Positions 3,742 to 60,064 of a stretch of DNA of 64,000 bases are shown piece after piece; within the stretch, counting starts at the first letter, position 1; every line of letters begins with the position of its first letter. Both the position numbers and the translations under genes were made by a program. This DNA comes from Bacteroidales bacterium (GTDB taxonomy: Bacteria; Bacteroidota; Bacteroidia; Bacteroidales; VadinHA17). The DNA lies in the NCBI GenBank assembly GCA_049654745.1, contig JBASIK010000202.1, forward strand, positions 9,111-73,110. Direction: 5' to 3'. The notes below the pieces were generated by a model. The model had not been told where the DNA came from and ran no database searches. It saw only the letters and a program-made list of their open reading frames with translations.

Positions 3742-4536
3742 ATGAGGAAGCTGTACATATCAGCATTGTTTGTTTTGTTTTTCGGATATCAACTTTCCGG
3801 CCAGGGTGAAATTGATGAACAGGCAAGGATTGTCTTCCGCAATGAGTTCACATTTGGTCTTATTTTAAGTACTGACGGTTACGGGATAAGTTACAGGGAG
3901 GGAAAGAGGCTGGATTATTTCAACAGAAGGCTTCTTGAGTTTGATATGGTTACCCTCAAGCATCCTAAAGAAGTCAGGCTTACCAATCCTGCCTATCAGA
4001 CTCCGGGTTCATTTATCTTCGGCAAAAAAAACTCTGTAGTTGTTTTCAGGGGTGGTATTGGACATCAGAAAGAGATTTTTGAAAAGGGAGATCTGGGAGG
4101 AGTTGCTGTGAGATACTTTTACACTGCGGGGCCCGTTATTGCCTTTTACAAGCCTATTTATTACAAAATTCTCAAGTTTGTAAGTTCCTACGAGGCTGAG
4201 ATCATTGAAGAAAAATTTGATGTCAGGAAGCATGATCCCACAATGATTTATGGGAAATGTTCTTTTTTCAAAGGCATAGAAGAAGGCAAGTTACTGCCGG
4301 GTCTTTACGGCAAGGCAGGTTTCAACTTTGAATACAGCAGGCAGGAAAAAGTGATTCATGCCATTGAAATCGGAGCCCAGATAGATGCATTTCCCAAAGC
4401 CATTCCAATAATGGATGTGGCTAAAAACAAAGCTGTATATTTCTCCCTCTTTGCCAGTTACCGTTTTGGCATGATAATAGATCCTCTGAATCCTGAAGCA
4501 AACAAATTGTCAAATATTTTCAGGGTAAGACGGTAG
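3742..4536 (+). CDS. Hypothetical secreted/outer-membrane protein
   Basis: ATG at 3742 gives a signal peptide (MRKLYISALFVLFFGYQLSGQ). The body is rich in alternating aromatic/Gly beta-strand-like segments. The TTG at 3697 used by the ORF track is less likely. Confidence 0.55.
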   Translation: MRKLYISALFVLFFGYQLSGQGEIDEQARIVFRNEFTFGLILSTDGYGISYREGKRLDYFNRRLLEFDMVTLKHPKEVRLTNPAYQTPGSFIFGKKNSVVVFRGGIGHQKEIFEKGDLGGVAVRYFYTAGPVIAFYKPIYYKILKFVSSYEAEIIEEKFDVRKHDPTMIYGKCSFFKGIEEGKLLPGLYGKAGFNFEYSRQEKVIHAIEIGAQIDAFPKAIPIMDVAKNKAVYFSLFASYRFGMIIDPLNPEANKLSNIFRVRR

Positions 4537-53494: not shown

Positions 53495-55825
53495 TTACTT
53501 TTTAACATATTTCTGTGTCCTGTTGTCGCTTATCACTCCTTTCCAGTTGAGCCCGAACCCGAATTTGTAGGTATTTCCTTCGCTGTCGGTATAGCATTTC
53601 ATGTCGTGAGGTACGTCTTCGAACTGTTCTTCAACAGTTTTCATATCGGCAGGCATGTTGAATGGCAGCAATGCCGAAGGTTCGGCTTTACCTGAGATAA
53701 TATCCAGTATTGCCTGATCCTGTACAGCAAAATGCAGGAGGATTGCGTCGCAAATACTCTCCATCTCTGCAAGCACGAAGGGATTGGCAGTATTTACGAC
53801 AACAATTAACGGTTTATTCCCAATAGCTTTGCGCGTATCCTTTATGAGTTTCAGGTCGCTATTGTTGGTTGCGGTTACTGTTTTTCCCCTGTAAGTACGG
53901 TTGGTGAAGTTTTCAAAAGGGCTGCCTCCCGCAATACTTACGGGACGGGCATTGACTGCTGTATATTTCTCATACTGAAGTGTTATTGGTACGTATCCGG
54001 TGCCACCTTTACTGAGTTCATCGGTGTTGAAACCTGTCCCTCCCCTCGGACTGTCAATAACAACAATGGCGGCATCGGCTTCTGCGGGATTACCGGTGAG
54101 TTCAAAATAACGGCCTGCAATGTCTGAAGACAGACAGTCAACAATTCTTTCTGCTGCCGGACCGCCAAAAAATCCTCCGCCACCTGCAACACGACGTTTG
54201 GGAATATAGACTTTTATCTTTTCCTTCAACGGAAGCACATTATTCTTATTTTTCAGCATCACTATTGATTTCAGCTGTGCCTCATATCCTGCTTTCATAA
54301 ATTCCGGATTTCCAACTATTTTTTTAGTTTCTTCCGAATCCAGATATGGATTTTCAAAGAGGCCAACCCTGAAAATATTTTTGAGCAATCTTACGGCTGA
54401 TTCTTCAAATCTTGCACGCATAAACTCCTCGCCATACTCTTTCACTCCCATGTTATAGGCATCCAGCACAGGACCTTTATCGTTATTACCGCCGAACTGG
54501 TCTATTCCTGCCATGATAGCTTTGTAATGTCTTTCACTGACAGTCAGTTTCTCGACACCCCATGGTTTTCCCTGGAACTGGTAAACTCCCTCAACGTTGC
54601 CTGTGATCCCCCAATCACTGCAAACAACGCCGTCGAAATTATATTTTTTTCTTAGCAGGTCTGTTATTACAAACTTGCTGTAAGAGTTCCCTACGTTTTC
54701 ATGATAAACGGTGTCGATATTGTAAGAGATTGTATAATAAGGCATTACCGCTGAAGCCATTCCTGTGGGGCCATTAAGTTTGAAGGCTCCTTCCACAAAT
54801 GGTTTCAGGTGATCTTTAAGGTTATTTCCGGGGTAGACGGCGTAGGCACCATAGCCGAAGTGGCCGTCTCTGCCTCCTTCTTCCGGTCCGCCTGAAGGCC
54901 AGTGTTTAACCATAGCATTAACTGAGTGGTAGCCCCATCCGTCTTTTATTTCATAAATAGAATCGGAAGTCTGGAAGCCGTCGACGTATGCTCTGGCCAT
55001 ATCTGTTGCCAGATCGGGGTCTTCGCCCATTGTTCCGTTAAATCTGCCCCAGCGGGGTTCGGTTGCAAGGTCAATCTGTGGCGACAGAGCGGTTGCGATG
55101 CCAAGGGCCCTGTATTCTATGGAGGCTATTTTACCGAATTGAAGCATGAGGTCAGGATCAAAAGTAGCTGCAAGCCCAAGAGTATTAGGCCACATCGAAA
55201 TGTTACCCCCTGCACCAAGGTTGAATTCTGCTGTTGCCTCGGTGCCGTGGCGTGGGTCGGAGCTTGTGTTGACAGGTATTCCGAGTCCCAGACCCTCGAC
55301 AAAAGCCTGCACATTGTTGTTCCATTGTGCTGCCACTTCAGGGCTTTCGACTCTGGTTATCAGCACATGCCTGACATTATCTTCCGATAGGAATTTCTTC
55401 TGCTGGTCGGTCAGGTCGGAAGGTTTTGCACCACTTTTACTGAAGGGCTGGCCGTTGTAAGTAGCTCCCATTCTTCCTCCCTCACCTGCAGGGATTGATT
55501 GATGACTGCTGTAGAGCATCAGCCCTGCTATCTGCTCAACGGAAAGTTTTGAGGCAAGATCTTTTGCCCTTTCGTCTGCCGACAGGCGTCAGTCTTCATA
55601 CGCATCGAGTTTTCCGTTCCGGTTAAGGTCCTTGAAGGCATAACCTCCTGTAGTAATAATCTGTACTCCTGAAGATTTCGAGTAGCCTAGAACCGGACCT
55701 TTCCTGTTATGCACCAGAGTATACCCCTGTTTTTCTTCTTCAGTCCACTTTTTACATGACTGTAGTGAGGTCATAACCATAGCGGTAATGACAAGAATAC
55801 CTGATAAAATGATTGTTTTCTTCAT
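53495..55825 (-). pseudogene. GH3 lipoprotein interrupted by one in-frame TGA (otherwise an intact 776-codon frame)
   Basis: ORFs 55589..55825 (lipoprotein signal MKKTIILSGILVITAMVMTSLQSC...DLNRNGKLDAYED*) and 53495..55519 are in the same frame. My translation of the gap (RLSADERAKDLASKLSVEQIAGLM) contains no other stop. GH3 motifs include SDPRHG and VVCSDWG. Confidence 0.8.
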
Positions 55826-56334
55826 AAGCTATTATATTATAATTGTCAAATAAGAATCTCATTTTGAATTCATATTACTCACATTACCGTAGTACACATT
55901 TCACTATCTATAAGTTAATTTCCAATAGCCTTTCATAAAGGTATTAAATTTTTAATATTGGCTCTCCTTGTAATCAAAACATCATTTCCCGATTAAAAAT
56001 AACTTTAGGAATAATAAAAATGACAATTCATTGCATTCCCGGGGTTTAATCATTTTTCTTCAACCATTACTTTCGTTTGTATGATTTTGTTCTCACATTA
56101 TTTCCTTCTAATATTTTGAAAGATAGCCAATTAAACGATATTCACATATAAGCACCGATTTTGTTATTGATTTTATGTATCATTAAACAACAATTTTCAG
56201 ATTGTGCAAATAGAATATCAATATTGTGACAAACTTAATTTTTTTTTCGAATGCTTTTATTTATTACCATAAGAGAATGAATAAGCGGGTCGACAGTATT
56301 GGTTTTGACATGGCAAGAATTGGAATAATTTTTG

Positions 56335-56342
56335 TAATTTTG
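56335..56342 (+). promoter_or_regulatory. -7 promoter box (TAATTTTG) for tmRNA
   Basis: Matches TAnnTTTG, 13 nt before the mature 5' GGGG. This fits a short precursor leader removed by RNase P. Confidence 0.5.
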
Positions 56343-56355
56343 TTGTCTGATTACC

Positions 56356-56752
56356 GGGGCTGACCTGGTTTTGACAGCATGGGAGGTGGTATGTAAGCAT
56401 GCAGCGTGTGGTGACGCGTCGCTATAAACGGTGTCACGGACTCAATAAACGGCGAATACAATTACGCTCTCGCTGCTTAAACGAACAGAGTAGTTTAAGC
56501 TTTATCCCGGCACAGTGCTGGGAGCGGGACGTCTCCCGGGCGGCGTAGCCGCGAGCCAACCCGATAAGGAGGCGCGTGGAAATCGGGGCTGGCCCGAAGG
56601 TTGTTCCGGCCAGAGGGCGAGACAGAAACGGAACTACGGATTATCAGGGTTGTCCTGCACCCGGATGGTCCCGACAATGGAGCAGGACTAAGCATGTAGA
56701 AAGCATATGGTCTCCATGACTGGACGCGGGTTCGACTCCCGCCAGCTCCACC
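56356..56752 (+). ncRNA. ssrA: Transfer-messenger RNA
   Basis: The 5' GGGGCTG pairs with the 3' CAGCTCC, including the G3:U identity pair. A T-arm GGGTTCGACTCCCGCC is present. The tag ORF GGC GAA TAC AAT TAC GCT CTC GCT GCT TAA (56451-56480) encodes GEYNYALAA. The gene ends ..CCACC, so the terminal A of CCA is not encoded. Confidence 0.95.
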
Positions 56753-56755
56753 TCC

Positions 56756-56890
56756 GCCCTCCGAAGTCCCGAGCAATCGGGACGAAAGAGGGCTCGGTAT
56801 CGCCCTCCGAAGTCCCGAGCAATCGGGACGAAAGAGGGCTGGGTATCGCCCTCCGAAGTCCCGAGCAATCGGGACGAAGGAGGGCTTCTC
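56756..56890 (+). repeat. Three tandem 46-bp hairpin repeat units directly after ssrA
   Basis: The unit is GCCCTCCGAAGTCCCGAGCAATCGGGACGAAAGAGGGCTCGGTATC, at 56756-56801, 56802-56847 and 56848-~56890, with one substitution each in copies 2 and 3. The fold is a 6-bp stem, a 5x5 internal loop, a 6-bp stem and a GCAA loop. Confidence 0.9.
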
Positions 56891-57026
56891 ATTTTAGTGC
56901 CGAACCATAAAATTTGTTTTTCTACTTAATACTTCGTCGGGCTACGGTGGACGCAGTCCACATTTATTTTGTAAGTTTAACAAAATTCCTAAATTTGTCT
57001 GGCTGCATTTCTATTATGTAATAAAC

Positions 57027-57272
57027 ATGGAAGAATTTTGGTTTGTATACATTCTTAAATGTGTAAATGCCAGATATTACACTGGTCTAACCAGAGACAT
57101 CGGCAGAAGATTAACTGAACATAATTCTGGTAAAGTTCATTACACAAAGGACAAGAGGCCTGTAGAACTTATCTCATTCGTTGCTTTCACGGATAAATAC
57201 AAAGCAGTAAATTTTGAAAAATATTTAAAGTCTGGTTCTGGTATTGCATTCAGAAACAGGCACTTAATATAA
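57027..57272 (+). CDS. Minimal GIY-YIG nuclease-domain protein (81 aa, UPF0213/COG2827-like)
   Basis: FWFVYILKC..ARYYTGLTRDIGRRLTEHNSG...: a GIY-type strand, YTG (YIG), a conserved Arg and E..N. No additional DNA-binding domain is present. Confidence 0.85.
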   Translation: MEEFWFVYILKCVNARYYTGLTRDIGRRLTEHNSGKVHYTKDKRPVELISFVAFTDKYKAVNFEKYLKSGSGIAFRNRHLI

Positions 57273-57321
57273 TTTTACCATCAAACATCTATTGTTTCCC
57301 GGACTGCAACCAAAAAACATT

Positions 57322-57382
57322 AGTCCCGAGCAATCGGGACGAAAGAGGGCTCGGTATCGCCCTCCGAAGTCCCGAGCAATCC
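57322..57382 (+). repeat. 1.5 further copies of the 46-bp hairpin unit
   Basis: 57322-57358 equals unit positions 10-46 of copy 1. 57359-57382 equals the first ~23 nt of a unit and then breaks off. Confidence 0.9.
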
Positions 57383-57470
57383 TTTAGATTTACCCTTTTA
57401 TTTATTCTTTTATAAAATGATGATGAAAATTTTTCTTTTTGGTTCTTTTTCTTTTGTTGAAATGTGTTAA

Positions 57471-59627
57471 TATGTTAATAAATCAACACCAGTAGTGGCG
57501 CATTATCCGCGCAGCCTTTTAGACGATGTTCGTAAAAACGGTGTGGGACAGCGTTATTTAATCCAGCATTCTGCCGGCAGCGGCAAGTCCAATTCCATCG
57601 CCTGGCTTGCCCATCAGCTTATCGGTGTACAAAAGGACGAAAAACCTGTTTTTGATTCTATCATTGTGGTAACCGACAGGCGTATTCTCGACCGGCAGAT
57701 TCGCGACACAGTGAAACAGTTTGCCCAGGTGAGTGCTACTGTGGGACACGCAGAGCGCTCTGGAGATTTACGGGCTTTCATCGAAAGCGGCAAAAAAATC
57801 ATTATCACCACACTGCAAAAATTCCCCTTTATTCTGGATGAGATCGGCAGTGAGCATCGCAACGGGAATTTTGCCATCATCATTGACGAAGCCCATTCAA
57901 GTCAGGGTGGCCGCACTCAAGCCCAAATGCATTAGGCATTGTCCGCAGCTATCAATATTGAAGACGATGACGAAACCTTTGAAGATGAAATCAACAGGCT
58001 GATAGAGGCAAAAAAACTTCTGCCCAATGCCAGTTATTTTGCCTTTACCGCCACGCCCAAAAACAAAACCCTTGAGATTTTTGGTACCCCTGTACCTCAG
58101 CCCGATGGCAGGGTAAAGCACATACCATTCCATAGTTATACCATGAAACAGGCCATCCAGGAAGGGTTTATCCTGGATGTGCTGGCTAACTACACGCCGG
58201 TTAATAGCTACTATCATCTGGTTAAAACCATTGAAGATGATCCACAGTTTGACGTGAAGAAGGCGCAGAAAAAACTCCGTCGTTTTGTAGAGAACCACGA
58301 GCATGCCATACGCCTCAAAGCAGAAATCATGGTGGATCATTTTCATGAACAGGTAATTGCCAAAGGAAAAATCGGAGGGCAGGCAAGGGCAATGGTGGTT
58401 ACACGCAGCATAGTCCTTGCTATTGAATACTTCCATGCTATCCGGCAATATTTGCAGGAACGAAAAAGTCCATACATGGCTATTGTGGCATTCTCAGGAG
58501 AACATGATTATGGCGGTAAAAAAGTCAGCGAAGCCAGTCTGAACGGTTTTCCTTCCAACATGATTGCCGACAAAATCAAGGAGGAACCATACAGGATTTT
58601 AATCTGTGCCGACAAATTCCAGACCGGTTACGATGAACCCCTGATGCACACCATGTATGTTGACAAAACACTCTCCGATGTAAAAGCCGTACAAACGCTT
58701 TCGCGGCTCAATCGTTCCCACCCGCAGAAGTACGATACATTCATTCTGGATTTTGCCAATGATGCCGAAACCATTCGCAAGGCCTTTGAGCCATACTACA
58801 GAACAACTATCCTCTCAGAGGAAACAGATCCTAATAAACTTCACGATCTCAAGGCAGGTCTGGATGGCTATCAGGTGTATACCAGAGAGAATATAGAGGA
58901 AGTGGTGCGTCTCTATCTGGCAGGGGCAGAGAGAGATAAGCTTGATGCAATACTTGACAATTGTGTGGCAGAGTATTTGAAACTGGATGAGGATGGACAA
59001 ATAGATTTTAAAAGTAAAGCAAAGGCTTTTCTCCGCACCTATAATTTTCTCTCTGCAATCTTGCCATACACGAATGCTTCGTGGGAAAAGCTTTCTATAT
59101 TTTTGCAGCTTCTGGTTCCAAAGCTCCCTATGCCAAAGGAAGAAGATCTTTCAAAAGGCATATTGGATGCTATCGACATGGATAGTTACCGGGTAGAAAA
59201 ACAGCAGACCATTCGTATTGCGCTCAACGATGCGGATGGCGAAATTGGACCTGTTCCAACCATAGTTGGTGGGCATAAAGGTGAGCCGGAGCTTGATCTT
59301 TTGTCGAATATCATAAATTCATTTAATGACCTTTTTGGTAACATTGAGTGGACAGATAAAGACCGTGTGCAGAAGCTTATTACCGAAGAAATACCTGCAC
59401 GTGTCGCTGCTGATACAGCCTACCGGAATGCGATGAAAAATTCAGACCAGCAGAACGCCCGCATCGAACACGATAAGGCATTGGAGAGGGTGATGACCGC
59501 TATTTTGCAGGACGATACCGAGCTTTTCAAGCAATTCAGTGATAATGATTCTTTCCGCCACTGGCTCAGGGAGAAAATATTTGCGTTAACCTATACAAAT
59601 CAACAGACAGAATCTTCCTCGCCGTAG
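57471..59627 (+). pseudogene. hsdR: Type I restriction enzyme R subunit (HsdR), 5'-truncated with an in-frame TAG
   Basis: Helicase motif I is HSAGSGKSNS and motif II is IIDEAHSSQG, followed by the C-terminal HsdR region. There is no ATG and no N-terminal nuclease domain (the frame opens only at 57471). TAG at 57933-57935 splits two same-frame ORFs (..QAQMH*ALSAAINIEDD..). No hsdM or hsdS is present. Confidence 0.8.
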
Positions 59628-59635
59628 ATAAATCG

Positions 59636-59764
59636 TTTGGGGCAATTCATGATTTGCCCTCAGATAAAGATATAATCCAATGGGAGCGGGAAATAAATAG
59701 GTTGATTTATAAATTGTACGAATTAACCGATGATTAAATTAAAATTATTGAAAATCAAAAATGA
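59636..59764 (+). pseudogene. C-terminal remnant of a restriction-modification methylase/specificity-type protein
   Basis: My own translation gives FGAIHDLPSDKDIIQWEREINRLIYKLYELTDD*IKIIENQK*. It resembles the common ...EIDxLVYxLYxLTxEEIxIIE C-terminus of type II/IIG methylase-family proteins, with TAA where homologs have Glu. Confidence 0.45.
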
Positions 59765-60064
59765 CCTACAATCCCGATAAACACCACCGCCGTTCCATCC
59801 GGTTGCCCGGATACGATTTCATCGGCCGGGGCGTATTTCATTACCATTTGCACGCACAACCGTGTATGTTTGTTCGGGAATATTGTGGATGGGGAAATGA
59901 TATTGAATGAATCCGGGAAAATTGCCCAACAATGTTGGTCGGAAATACCCCGTCATTTTCCGGATGCATCATTGGATGAATTTGTGATAATGCCAAATAA
60001 TGTGCATGGAATCATTATTATTGTACGGGCACAAAATGCTGTGCCCCTAAAATCCATAAAGTAG
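59761..60064 (+). pseudogene. Y1 (HUH) transposase of the RAYT/IS200-like family, frameshifted and 3'-truncated
   Basis: Frame 1 from the ATG at 59761 reads MTYNPDKHHRRSIRLPGYDFIGRG. The frame then shifts at a GGGG run (~59828-59832) into AYFITICTHNRVCLFGNIVDGEMILNESGKIAQQCWSEIPRHF...FVIMPNNVHGIIII. The HUH motif reads NVH (first His lost), and a stop at 60064 falls after ~100 aa. Confidence 0.7.

Follow-up and report, generated by a model that had tools for sequence, protein, structure and literature searches.

The window analyzed here, a stretch of 64,000 nucleotides (nt) from the genome of a Bacteroidales bacterium (contig JBASIK010000202.1), carries directly downstream of its transfer-messenger RNA (tmRNA) gene, ssrA, three head-to-tail hairpin units, an open reading frame (ORF) for an 81-aa GIY-YIG nuclease, and a further, incomplete run of the same hairpins, beyond which lies the remnant of an hsdR gene. 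We found that this locus is one instance of a modular element that is anchored at the 3' ends of tRNA and tmRNA genes. As read from the DNA between the tRNA gene end and the ORF start in ~60 loci, the module consists, in this order, of the tRNA gene end (..NCCACC), a TTC, TCC, or TAC linker, a hairpin (H1), usually a T-tract, a second structured segment (M2), an AT-rich leader that carries a promoter-like site, an ORF for a GIY-YIG protein of ~80 aa, and a short tail. Every one of these elements is present in the window: the linker TCC, H1 in three copies, a T-tail, the prefix of M2 and its hairpin (H2), the promoter-like site, and the ORF. The 46-bp repeat unit of the window is H1 plus an 8-nt linker and does not represent a free-standing repeat family peculiar to ssrA.

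A first-pass annotation made from the sequence alone had described 46-bp units lying head to tail just 3' of the tmRNA gene, about 1.5 further copies after the ORF (57322 to 57382), and the 81-aa GIY-YIG ORF in between, and all of these features are present where it had placed them, as checked with ARAGORN, Rfam, Pfam, and Tandem Repeats Finder (TRF), among others. TRF reports 2.9 copies of the 46-bp unit at 56755 to 56886 (97% matches), and the DNA at 57322 to 57381 is 100% identical to that at 56765 to 56824 across 60 nt. The inner hairpin (GTCCCGAGCAATCGGGAC) is found four times in the window, always at the ssrA locus, with 0.01 copies expected by chance. The 38-nt unit does fold (−24.8 kcal/mol; z-score, −6.0), but the 6-bp stems and 5-by-5 internal loop assigned to it are better read as a 7-bp outer stem (GCCCTCC/GGAGGGC), a 3-by-3 internal loop (GAA/GAA), and a 7-bp inner stem (GTCCCGA/TCGGGAC) closed by a GCAA loop. 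Since the reverse strand folds as well as the forward strand (−24.6 kcal/mol), folding energy gives no choice of strand. Of the three copies, copy 3 alone has a flawless outer stem and the T-rich tail TTCTCATTTTAG behind it; the outer stems of copies 1 and 2 contain a C.A mismatch. Over positions 55500 to 58500, tmRNA was the only Rfam hit above threshold at E ≤ 1; a subthreshold hit to permuted tmRNA overlaps the tmRNA 3' end.

Linkage to tRNA and tmRNA genes and the encoded nuclease

The first two homologues of the window's protein, P0022 (73% identical) and P0076 (64% identical), are both encoded ~150 to 170 nt downstream of a tmRNA gene and on the same strand, and the genes further downstream differ between the two loci. 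In a scan of one genome per species, 80 loci were selected by protein patterns alone. The end of a same-strand tmRNA gene (25 loci) or tRNA gene (32 loci; Ala, Met, Ser, Pro, Val, Arg, Asp, Trp, and Lys) lies 54 to 842 nt upstream of the ORF in 57 of them. For 16 of the other 23, the leader or H1 is directly preceded by the 3' end of a tRNA gene or by a displaced piece of such an end (e.g., ..CGACTCCCGCCAGCTCCACC followed directly by TTCG..), these 16 including two tmRNAs missed by ARAGORN. Five loci are uninformative (contig edges or masked bases), and two are without a tRNA gene. Altogether, a tRNA or tmRNA 3' end or fragment stands upstream in 73 of the 75 informative loci, and never on the opposite strand; several of our counts, namely, those of the leader plan and of the 16 added loci, rest on by-eye reading of printed sequences. 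The loci belong to Bacteroidota and to some metagenome-assembled genomes (MAGs) labelled Patescibacteria, and the modules stand behind at least 10 different tRNA species. Of 10 other tRNA genes in these loci, taken as controls, 9 are without the leader, and most of those end in ordinary terminators; the tenth is followed by an ORF-less copy. The hairpin and the GIY-YIG gene, whose pairing had been suggested from the window alone, thus recur in the same hairpin-then-gene order at tRNA and tmRNA 3' ends in dozens of genomes. As the first-pass annotation had surmised, the pairing is not a described element as far as open-access papers and bioRxiv go, in which we found no published account of it and no description of bacterial GIY-YIG genes linked to tRNA genes. 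The mini-element is widespread, apparently undescribed, and nearly confined to tRNA and tmRNA 3' ends.

Several loci show further peculiarities around the tRNA or tmRNA gene. Six that are labelled Patescibacteria or Saccharibacteria (L046, L066, L072, L077, L083, and L085) have a minimal merged leader (TTCG-CTCGCC-GAAG-CGAGC-TAYG-GCGGAC-AAA-GTCCGCC) behind tRNA-Ser, tRNA-Trp, or tRNA-Lys; the family may cross phyla, or else the bins of these MAGs contain contaminants. At L048 (2178 to 2360), L064 (2141 to 2310), and L080, a complete tmRNA gene with an ordinary terminator is followed ~150 nt on by a second tmRNA 3' fragment fused to H1, M2, and the ORF, and the pieces between the tmRNA gene and the older module end in ..ACCGAAGGTAC, as if a small element had inserted there. 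L106 to L109 contain a stand-alone pair of tRNA-Ile(GAU) and tRNA-Ala(UGC), a pair usual in rRNA spacers, with the GIY-YIG module behind tRNA-Ala; upstream of this tRNA-Ala lies a partial second copy of a putative tRNA 5' segment (ggggaattagctcagctgg), followed by palindromic sequence. Short tandem repeats upstream of ssrA are found in L001 (2136 to 2397), L011 (2342 to 2402), and L128 (30 to 204) and not in the window; the units in these relatives are 14 bp in 15.6 copies (GAAGACCGAAGTCT), CTTCCGA in 3 to 4 copies, GGCGTAG in 4.4 copies, and 35 bp in 5 copies. The ssrA flanks of this group seem generally repeat-prone.

Residues 4 to 69 of the window's protein match Pfam PF01541 (E = 8.7e-16; 58.4 bits, cutoff 22.6). 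Across 35 homologues the mean column identity is 72%, with 19 invariant columns; Y8, Y18, G20, R28, and E64 never vary, H32 and N77 show ≥90% conservation, and by analogy these seven residues would have catalytic roles. A profile search of the PDB sequences recovered only the UPF0213 proteins BH0048 (PDB code 1zg2; 1.6e-15) and EF2693 (PDB code 1ywl; 8.5e-9). The AlphaFold model (predicted local distance difference test score of 86; topology, beta-beta-alpha-beta-alpha-alpha; last 5 residues disordered) matched, in Foldseek searches, UPF0213 BH0048, Slx1 (template modeling [TM] score of 0.70 to 0.74, 27 to 34% identity), and the N-terminal domain of UvrC (E about 0.5). The protein is nearer Slx1/UPF0213 than the homing-endonuclease, UvrC, or restriction-enzyme branches. 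No model of PHROG, PADLOC, or NCBIfam matches it, and a look-up for exact copies of the 81-aa sequence gave none, while 1,680 clusters were recovered at E ≤ 1e-10 in a library of 50%-identity representatives. Searches of 2.9 million viral contigs found two distant relatives, both at contig ends and without a detectable tRNA, and the M2 pattern of tmRNA-type modules is absent from viral contigs; a plasmid collection yielded only distant, YazA-like GIY-YIG matches (30 to 44% identical).

The features of the window's locus are collected in Table 1. The promoter-like site listed there was read by eye and is a candidate; it resembles the Bacteroidetes −33/−7 promoter consensus.

Table 1. The ssrA locus of the window, with coordinates counted from the first nucleotide of the window
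Feature	Position	Strand	Remarks
tmRNA gene (ssrA)	56356..56752	+	ARAGORN; Rfam RF00023, 136 bits; tag peptide GEYNYALAA
tmRNA 3' end ..CAGCTCCACC	ends 56752	+	Anchor point of the module
Linker TCC	56753..56755	+	Counterpart of the TTC/TCC/TAC between tRNA gene end and H1 in relatives
H1, copy 1	56756..56793	+	C.A mismatch in outer stem; from its position 10 onward the same as the post-ORF partial hairpin
Inter-unit linker TCGGTATC	56794..56801	+	Read from the sequence
H1, copy 2	56802..56839	+	Followed by linker TGGGTATC (56840-56847)
H1, copy 3	56848..56885	+	Perfect 7-bp outer stem GCCCTCC/GGAGGGC; orthologue of the H1 that relatives have in one copy
T-rich tail TTCTCATTTTAG after H1 copy 3	56886..56897	+	Matches the T-tract behind H1 in relatives; probable tmRNA terminator tail
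M2 prefix CTTCG-TCGGGC-TACG	56932..56946	+	Imperfect reverse complement of the H1 5' half (GCCCTCCGAAG), then TWCG core
H2 hairpin GTGGAC-GCA-GTCCAC	56947..56961	+	3' arm repeats the tmRNA 3' end (C/G)TCCAC, 5' arm complementary; T-run after
Promoter-like site: TTTG (56968-56971), 18 nt, TAAATTTG (56990-56997)	56968..56997	+	Kept in L001 and L128
81-aa GIY-YIG nuclease gene	57027..57272	+	Pfam PF01541; minimal Slx1/UPF0213-type domain
Module 3' tail (..GGACTGCAACCAA..)	57273..57321	+	Homologous to the tails of L011, L101, and L128
Partial H1 without 5' arm	57322..57350	+	Then linker TCGGTATC, then the 5' part of a further H1 (57359-57382)
AT-rich filler, 112 nt	57383..57494		Between the hairpin fragment and the hsdR remnant
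hsdR pseudogene remnant	57495..59627	+	Outside the module; N-terminal third gone, one frameshift

Hairpins of the leader

H1 is recognized by its place and its plan. The linker that joins it to the tRNA gene end reads TTCG in 31 of 42 loci and TCCG in 8 of 42, and a perfect 7-bp outer stem that starts 2 to 4 nt past the tRNA gene end is present in 49 of 62 loci, made of at least 14 different heptamers (e.g., GCCCTCC, GCTCGCC, GCCCGCC, GCCCTGC, GCCCTAC, and GTTCTCC). The internal loop reads G(A/T)A in its 5' half and G(A/T/C)(A/C) in its 3' half, and the inner stem always opens with a G-C pair and ranges in length from 2 bp (GC-TTTA-GC) to at least 7 bp (e.g., GTCC-GATA-GGAC in L057 and GTCCCGA-GCAA-TCGGGAC in the window). 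When H1 was aligned across loci (alignment A2), 93.4% of the cells pair and 12 of 15 pairs vary on both sides, with none of 500 shuffles reaching the observed values and 35 to 49% paired in slid controls; for the seven outer pairs the percentage is partly circular, because the outer arms were picked by complementarity. The diversity of heptamers at a fixed position and the pairs of the inner stem are free of this circularity. H1 loops linked to tRNA genes are mostly TTTA or CTTG or belong to longer inner stems, and the GNRA loop, after which the first-pass annotation had named the hairpin array, is lineage specific: GNRA occurs in 1 of 81 instances of the hairpin core, and with a loop so little conserved an RNA motif of the GNRA-receptor type was ruled out. 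From the tRNA gene end to the ORF, the most enriched 4-mers are GAAG, CGAA, CTTC, and TTCG (z = 7.8 to 13.6), and the pentamer CTTCG/CGAAG, the most over-represented word of the leader, is present at every junction. A search of 16 related loci against Rfam at the gathering threshold found nothing but tRNA and tmRNA.

In about two thirds of the loci, H1 is followed by a T-tract; in the others, TTCG and the start of another partial unit follow. In the window, copy 3 continues with TTCTCATTTT, and copies 1 and 2 are without such a T-tract. The earlier suggestion of a tmRNA terminator is to this extent plausible: H1 probably doubles as the intrinsic terminator of the tmRNA or tRNA transcript. A simple terminator scan called H2 and its T-run terminator-like and left H1 uncalled because the loop limit of the scan excludes the nested inner stem-loop.

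M2 consists of a prefix complementary to the 5' half of H1, a TWCG core, and the hairpin H2. The 3' arm of H2 repeats the last 6 to 7 nt of the tRNA gene behind which it lies, and the 5' arm is complementary to the 3' arm, so that H2 differs by tRNA: GTGGAC/GTCCAC for tmRNA, Ala, and Arg; TCGGGC/GCCCGA for Pro; GCGGAC/GTCCGC for Ser; GCGGTC/GACCGC for Asp; GCGGGC/GCCCAC for Met and Val; and GCGGGT/ACCCGC for Trp. In the set returned by an automatic detector, after removal of two mis-detections, the H2 3' arm matches the end of its own tRNA gene at 5.17 of 6 positions (4.41 ± 0.08 with loci permuted; 0 of 2,000 permutations as high), and the M2 prefix is complementary to its own H1 5' arm at 5.26 of 7 positions (4.34 ± 0.12 permuted; again 0 of 2,000).

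These pairings raise the question of the nucleic acid strand on which the leader acts, and here the evidence conflicts. The G.U wobble pairs of H1 fall on the sense strand, which they weakly favor; the mismatch in 14 of 15 imperfect H2 stems is C.A when read in the sense strand and G.T when read in the antisense strand, which favors the antisense strand; and folding energy is neutral. In minimum-energy RNA folds from the tmRNA end to H2, the tmRNA 3' end forms a long-range helix with the GGTGGA of M2, and in L025 this helix goes on to join the M2 prefix to the 5' half of H1, in place of H1 and H2. DNA that is single stranded or extruded has the same alternative. At the RNA level, the locus could be a resident of the host, i.e., a vertically inherited gene with H1 as its terminator and M2/H2 as a cis-regulatory or processing leader, in which pairing of the tRNA 3' end and H1 5' half with M2 would compete with H1 and H2 and control read-through, processing, or nuclease expression, the hairpin triplication of the window being neutral slippage of a terminator. 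The T-tracts, the terminator-like score of H2 with its T-run, the RNA folds, and the sense-strand G.U pairs of H1 all suit this explanation, as do the partial clustering of the proteins by tRNA gene type and the near absence of the family from phages, with only distant GIY-YIG relatives on plasmids. We nevertheless regard it as unlikely: the alternative partner lies downstream of the terminator, which excludes a classical antiterminator role, the C.A mismatches of H2 argue against pairing of H2 in a sense RNA, and the signs of insertion and amplification given in the next section speak against simple residence.

The hairpin core is also found away from the module. At least 120 metagenome contigs contain the pattern CCGAAG-TCCCGA-N4-TCGGGA-CGAA, most of them at places without tRNA or GIY-YIG genes; the core is not specific to the tmRNA. 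Among 80 of these contigs fetched for inspection, only L128, L155, L175, and L182 have it at tRNA or GIY-YIG genes; 21 represent an intergenic element of ~180 nt made of nested palindromes, and the others hold solitary or tandem intergenic hairpins whose outer stems covary. The core is a widely reused palindromic building block. Tandem H1 is rare (two exact pattern matches in 1 of the 80 metagenome loci; a second, variant unit in L163 and L186), and because L163 pairs a GC-TTTA-GC unit with a unit of the GTCCCGA stem, the inner hairpin appears to be a swappable insert. Solitary or tandem copies between genes in many unrelated contigs would suit palindromes of the repetitive extragenic palindromic (REP) kind, served by a transposase of the RAYT or IS200 type and beside the GIY-YIG gene by coincidence. 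The window even contains, at 59761 to 60064 (+), two overlapping frames (MTYNPDKHHRRSIRLPGYDF.., ..DEFVIMPNNVHGIII..) that resemble the frameshifted N-terminal half of an HUH Y1 transposase of the IS200/RAYT type. This explanation is nonetheless hardly credible: the fragment has no Pfam, NCBIfam, or PDB match, lies 2.4 kb off, and has no flanking hairpins; H1-type hairpins are confined to ssrA within the 64-kb window; and the linkage of hairpin, GIY-YIG gene, and tRNA gene is systematic.

The ~180-nt element, seen in L113, L120, L123, L130, L135, L137, L139, and 14 more loci, reads GTCATTTCGACC-hairpin-..-TCGAAATGAC between the flanks TGCTCTGTAGA and TCTACAGAGCA, holds the same GAA-flanked GTCCCGA hairpin, and has no Rfam match. 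L142 (4754 to 4848), L163, and L186 contain tandem pairs of H1 type with a 47-nt period and the linker TCTGATGCxT, which are intergenic and without a tRNA or GIY-YIG gene. In L125 (~3988 to 4174), a duplicated 5' half of tRNA-Asp with a 30-nt insert in the D-loop (CCGCCTTCGCCAAGGCTTCGGCGGACGAAG) lies just upstream of the intact tRNA-Asp gene and just after an H1-type hairpin. L150 and L189 have the core reversed, as a spacer between tRNA-Val(cac) and tRNA-Pro(ggg), with the TTC/TTC loops on the tRNA-sense strand.

Direct repeats, amplification, and the history of the window locus

In 12 of 56 loci, ≥9 nt of the 3' end of the tRNA gene recur exactly within 300 nt past the ORF (permuted mean, 1.4; maximum, 5). 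When extended, these direct repeats span 11 to 201 nt. In four tRNA-Ser loci (L047, L050, L059, and L091) a 20-nt repeat (TCGAATCCCnCCCTCnCCGC) runs from the T-loop to the 3' end, with 15 nt in L097; the repeat is 17 nt in L025 (tmRNA) and 12 nt in L001; and longer ones take in H1 (46 nt in L077, 63 nt in L079, and 201 nt in L089). Past the distal repeat come an apparently native flank and an ordinary terminator. Repeats that reach from the T-loop to the tRNA 3' end, such as those of 20 nt in the tRNA-Ser loci and of 17 nt in L025, would also suit a mini-island, comparable to the remnant of a cis-mobilizable element (CIME), with an att core made of the terminal part of tRNA and tmRNA genes, T-loop to 3' end, a tyrosine integrase acting in trans, and the GIY-YIG gene as cargo for, e.g., addiction, exclusion, or defense; so would the displaced tRNA gene fragments that precede modules where other DNA separates the tRNA gene from the module. 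We consider such an origin quite improbable, given that no integrase lies in or beside any module examined (none among the called genes or ORFs around them), that the "islands" would measure merely 400 to 550 bp and yet hold the same gene and structured leader throughout a phylum, that no PADLOC defense model matches the protein, and that an att site alone does not account for the covariation of H2 and the M2 prefix with the tRNA gene and H1.

Comparison of the proteins points to changes of the tRNA gene. The proteins of L101 (tmRNA) and L106 (tRNA-Ala-UGC) are 83% identical and those of L044 (tmRNA) and L049 (tRNA-Arg) 76% identical; both pairs stand behind different tRNA genes that share the terminus CTCCACC. 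Nearest-neighbor proteins stand behind the same type of tRNA gene in 36 of 64 cases, and it appears that both long residence and occasional switching of tRNA genes happen. Tandem amplification is frequent and takes several forms: L089 has its 201-nt repeat; L022 has 100-bp units in 7.8 copies, from the 3' half of H1 through M2, with the ORF a pseudogene; L058 has 363-bp units with five GIY-YIG matches (four full length and one weaker); L028, L054, and L093 have two ORF copies each; and L037, L040, L055, L061, L075, and L092 have repeated pieces of H1 and M2. Copies also vary between loci, with two modules behind ssrA in L128 versus one in the window, an ORF-less copy in L049, and the pseudogene of L022. 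For a vertically inherited host locus, the tRNA-gene-end repeats that bracket the module, its presence behind so many tRNA species and in tandem arrays, and the existence of ORF-less and pseudogenized copies are all adverse.

The arrangement in the window can be read with the help of its sister locus L128, found through the metagenome scan for the hairpin core. The tmRNA regions are 96.7% identical, and H1b, M2b, and most of ORF B in L128 (1295 to 1705) are 93.9% identical to their counterparts in the window. The order in L128 is tmRNA, H1a, M2a, ORF A (78-aa type), tail A, and a partial H1 without 5' arm, followed by a single H1 like that of the window, its TTCTCATTTTAG tail included, M2b, ORF B (81-aa type; orthologue of the window's ORF), tail B, and a mini hairpin (GCCCTCCGAAGAGGG). 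Positions 57190 to 57382 of the window are colinear with the end of ORF A, tail A, the partial H1, and H1b.

This comparison bears on the first-pass proposal that the ORF is part of a ~431-bp GIY-YIG cassette that invaded a continuous hairpin array behind ssrA and replaced ~16 nt of one unit. Hairpin copies do flank the ORF on both sides, and the downstream 60 nt are identical to upstream copies 1 and 2. However, hairpin, T-tail, M2, and ORF form the conserved single-copy order of relatives. The sequence at the left junction (GGAGGGC-TTCTCATTTTAG..) is how a lone H1 ordinarily continues in L128, L001, L011, L101, and >40 other loci, and tandem H1 is rare in metagenome loci, as noted above. Since the one H1 of L128 continues like window copy 3 (94% identity), the supposed left break is an ordinary H1 continuation. 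The right junction is common to L128, where it joins two complete modules, and from this colinearity the "1.5 copies" after the ORF are the hairpin junction into a following module and not the other half of a broken array. An invaded array is on these grounds very unlikely. The window is a recombined and partly deleted module array, in which the following module has been lost: the sequence stops mid-hairpin at 57382 and runs into AT-rich DNA and the decapitated hsdR. The truncation of hsdR had been correctly noted, but the hairpins do not abut it directly, since the AT-rich filler of Table 1 intervenes. The hsdR pieces (57495 to 57935 and 57939 to 59627, with a frameshift at ~57936) correspond to positions 271 to 392 and 392 to 669 of the hsdR model, the first ~270 aa being gone, and no hsdM or hsdS lies within 54 to 64 kb of the window. 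Probably, the remnant is a leftover of an island or restriction-modification locus lost in the rearrangement that cut the module array.

Among the hairpins of the window, copy 3 is the orthologous H1, and copies 1 and 2 are local duplicates. From position 10 on and including the linker TCGGTATC, copy 1 is identical to the post-ORF junction, and this identity may have arisen either by loss of a proximal module via hairpin recombination or by a 557-bp segmental duplication whose second copy was truncated; copy 2, with its linker TGGGTATC, needs one more 46-bp duplication. The last ~60 nt of the window's ORF and its tail are nearer module A of L128 (87%). A chimera of a module-B 5' part and a module-A 3' part was considered for this ORF; its ending RNRHLI, however, is the family-consensus C terminus, so that module B of L128 may be the rearranged one, and we keep the chimera only as a hint of recombination between paralogous modules.

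Proposed spread of the module and its place among known systems

Weighing these comparisons, we hold with moderate confidence that the module is selfish and nuclease driven, that it targets tRNA gene ends, and that it spreads via the repair of breaks. The 81-aa protein would be an active, minimal structure-specific nuclease of the Slx1/UPF0213 type, which would cut DNA at or near hairpin or branch structures and the CTTCG/CGAAG words at the tRNA gene end. Repair of the break by recombination would then copy the module into unoccupied tRNA genes with the same 3' terminus, in a homing-like manner, and the same breaks would yield local tandem duplications and unequal exchanges, such as the H1 triplet of the window. 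Slx1 cuts flaps, stem-loops, and junctions, and by analogy such an activity would fit a module made of alternative hairpins.

A number of observations weigh against this spread by nuclease-induced repair. No pair of empty and occupied alleles with identical flanks was found, and for this reason mobility had to be deduced from the direct repeats, the tRNA gene switches, and the copy-number variation. Direct repeats that begin in the T-loop are a classic signature of tyrosine integrases, and the modules have no integrase. The 36 of 64 nearest neighbors behind the same type of tRNA gene fit long vertical residence as well. With the family nearly absent from phage contigs and only distantly represented on plasmids, no transfer vehicle is known. 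Unlike the characterized homing endonucleases, the protein has in its 81 aa no domain beyond GIY-YIG and, thus, no separate DNA-binding domain. The occurrence of the core in many contigs away from tRNA and GIY-YIG genes means that H1 is not exclusive to the module, and the pairing figure for its outer stem has the circularity mentioned above. In the window itself there is no displaced tmRNA fragment (no second copy of TCCCGCCAGCTCCACC at ≤3 mismatches), and the contig being from a MAG, there is some small chance of a mis-join at the 60-nt repeat.

A bolder version of the mechanism, which we put forward only tentatively and think unlikely, is that the leader is a built-in, target-matched guide and the module a hairpin-guided, nuclease-only mobile element. 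M2 would be the reverse complement of the junction between the tRNA gene 3' end and the H1 5' half, save for a central unpaired TTC(G) on both strands, and it would splint the end of the target and the end of the element into a two-fold-symmetric branched or bubble structure. A dimer of the minimal Slx1-type nuclease would cut this splinted structure, and retargeting to other tRNA or tmRNA genes would require a change of the 6 to 7 nt of H2. Whether the target-matched hairpins make the module categorically new, beyond a selfish GIY-YIG gene, we regard likewise as the less likely case.

Among known systems, the closest in proposed operation are the free-standing GIY-YIG homing endonuclease genes of T-even phages, which spread through recombinational repair of breaks (PMC2330249; PMC13096335). 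One of them, SegB, which is encoded within the cluster of tRNA genes of these phages, was recently shown to drive the tandem amplification of the segment next to it (PMC13096335). SegB may thus be seen as a functional precedent for the amplification of the module. SegA to SegG, and SegB especially, are like the module in being small selfish GIY-YIG genes with their own promoter, between or beside tRNA genes. The Seg proteins have ~200 aa or more and a C-terminal DNA-binding domain, whereas the protein of the module is the catalytic domain alone (78 to 81 aa) and is closer in sequence and fold to Slx1/UPF0213 than to the phage homing endonucleases. Furthermore, the family is chromosomal in Bacteroidota and Patescibacteria and essentially absent from phage contigs, and the module, unlike the Seg genes, carries a structured leader (H1 and M2/H2) matched to the tRNA gene. 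The Slx1/UPF0213 proteins (YazA, YhbQ, and BH0048) are its best matches in sequence and fold and have the same catalytic residues. Slx1 itself has a C-terminal RING/zinc finger domain and needs Slx4, and the module's protein has the GIY-YIG domain only. To our knowledge, bacterial UPF0213 proteins have not been linked to tRNA genes or to conserved flanking hairpins. A 2006 survey of the GIY-YIG superfamily leaves tRNA gene linkage unmentioned for its Slx1-like cluster.

In position, the module resembles the Islander-type islands and CIMEs, which also sit at the 3' end of a tRNA gene, leave it intact, stack in tandem, and have their far end marked by a displaced or duplicated 3' fragment from the T-loop (as in the 12 of 56 loci, the window not among them); it differs from them in having no integrase, a size of ~0.4 to 0.55 kb, a constant single GIY-YIG gene, and internal hairpins that covary with the target. 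In construction, it resembles the REP sequences and the bacterial interspersed mosaic elements (BIMEs) of RAYT systems, the ends of IS200/IS605 elements, and attC sites. There, too, the units are bounded by imperfect palindromes in which certain unpaired bases are conserved, a short word lies by the hairpin at every junction (here CTTCG/TWCG), a strand asymmetry is possible, and solitary or tandem intergenic copies exist, as they do for H1. The module's protein, however, is a GIY-YIG hydrolase and neither an HUH Y1 transposase nor a tyrosine recombinase, and its units are anchored at tRNA gene ends and not dispersed; we know of no strand-transfer chemistry in GIY-YIG enzymes. The intrinsic terminator of ssrA is likewise a GC-rich hairpin right after the mature 3' end, with a T-rich tail like that of copy 3 and of about two thirds of the relatives, but H1 has in addition conserved purine internal loops, a fixed linker, and a second complementary partner (the M2 prefix), and among the tRNA genes checked in the same loci its leader was found only with the module. 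The module would work most like a free-standing GIY-YIG homing gene, sits like the integrase islands, and is built of hairpins like REP, IS200/IS605, and attC; it belongs to none of these, lacking a DNA-binding domain, an integrase, and any recombinase of the HUH or tyrosine kind.

Integrase-borne islands classically land at tRNA and tmRNA genes. The module is a second and much smaller occupant of these sites, with ~0.5 kb, one gene for an Slx1-like nuclease of 80 residues, and two structured elements, one of which holds a copy and the complement of the tRNA gene end in front of it. For annotation, this means that the hairpin arrays, the ORFs labelled "GIY-YIG nuclease family protein," and the tRNA gene fragments behind the tRNA and tmRNA genes of Bacteroidota are best taken together as one unit. 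Should the module indeed spread by nuclease-induced repair, it would correspond, on bacterial chromosomes, to the free-standing homing endonucleases of phages and would be a source of rearrangement at essential RNA genes. If, moreover, its hairpins guide the nuclease, it would be a very small, retargetable DNA-cutting system, i.e., a DNA-structure-guided analogue of the guide sequences of IS200/IS605 or of the bridge-RNA systems, built on a GIY-YIG hydrolase.

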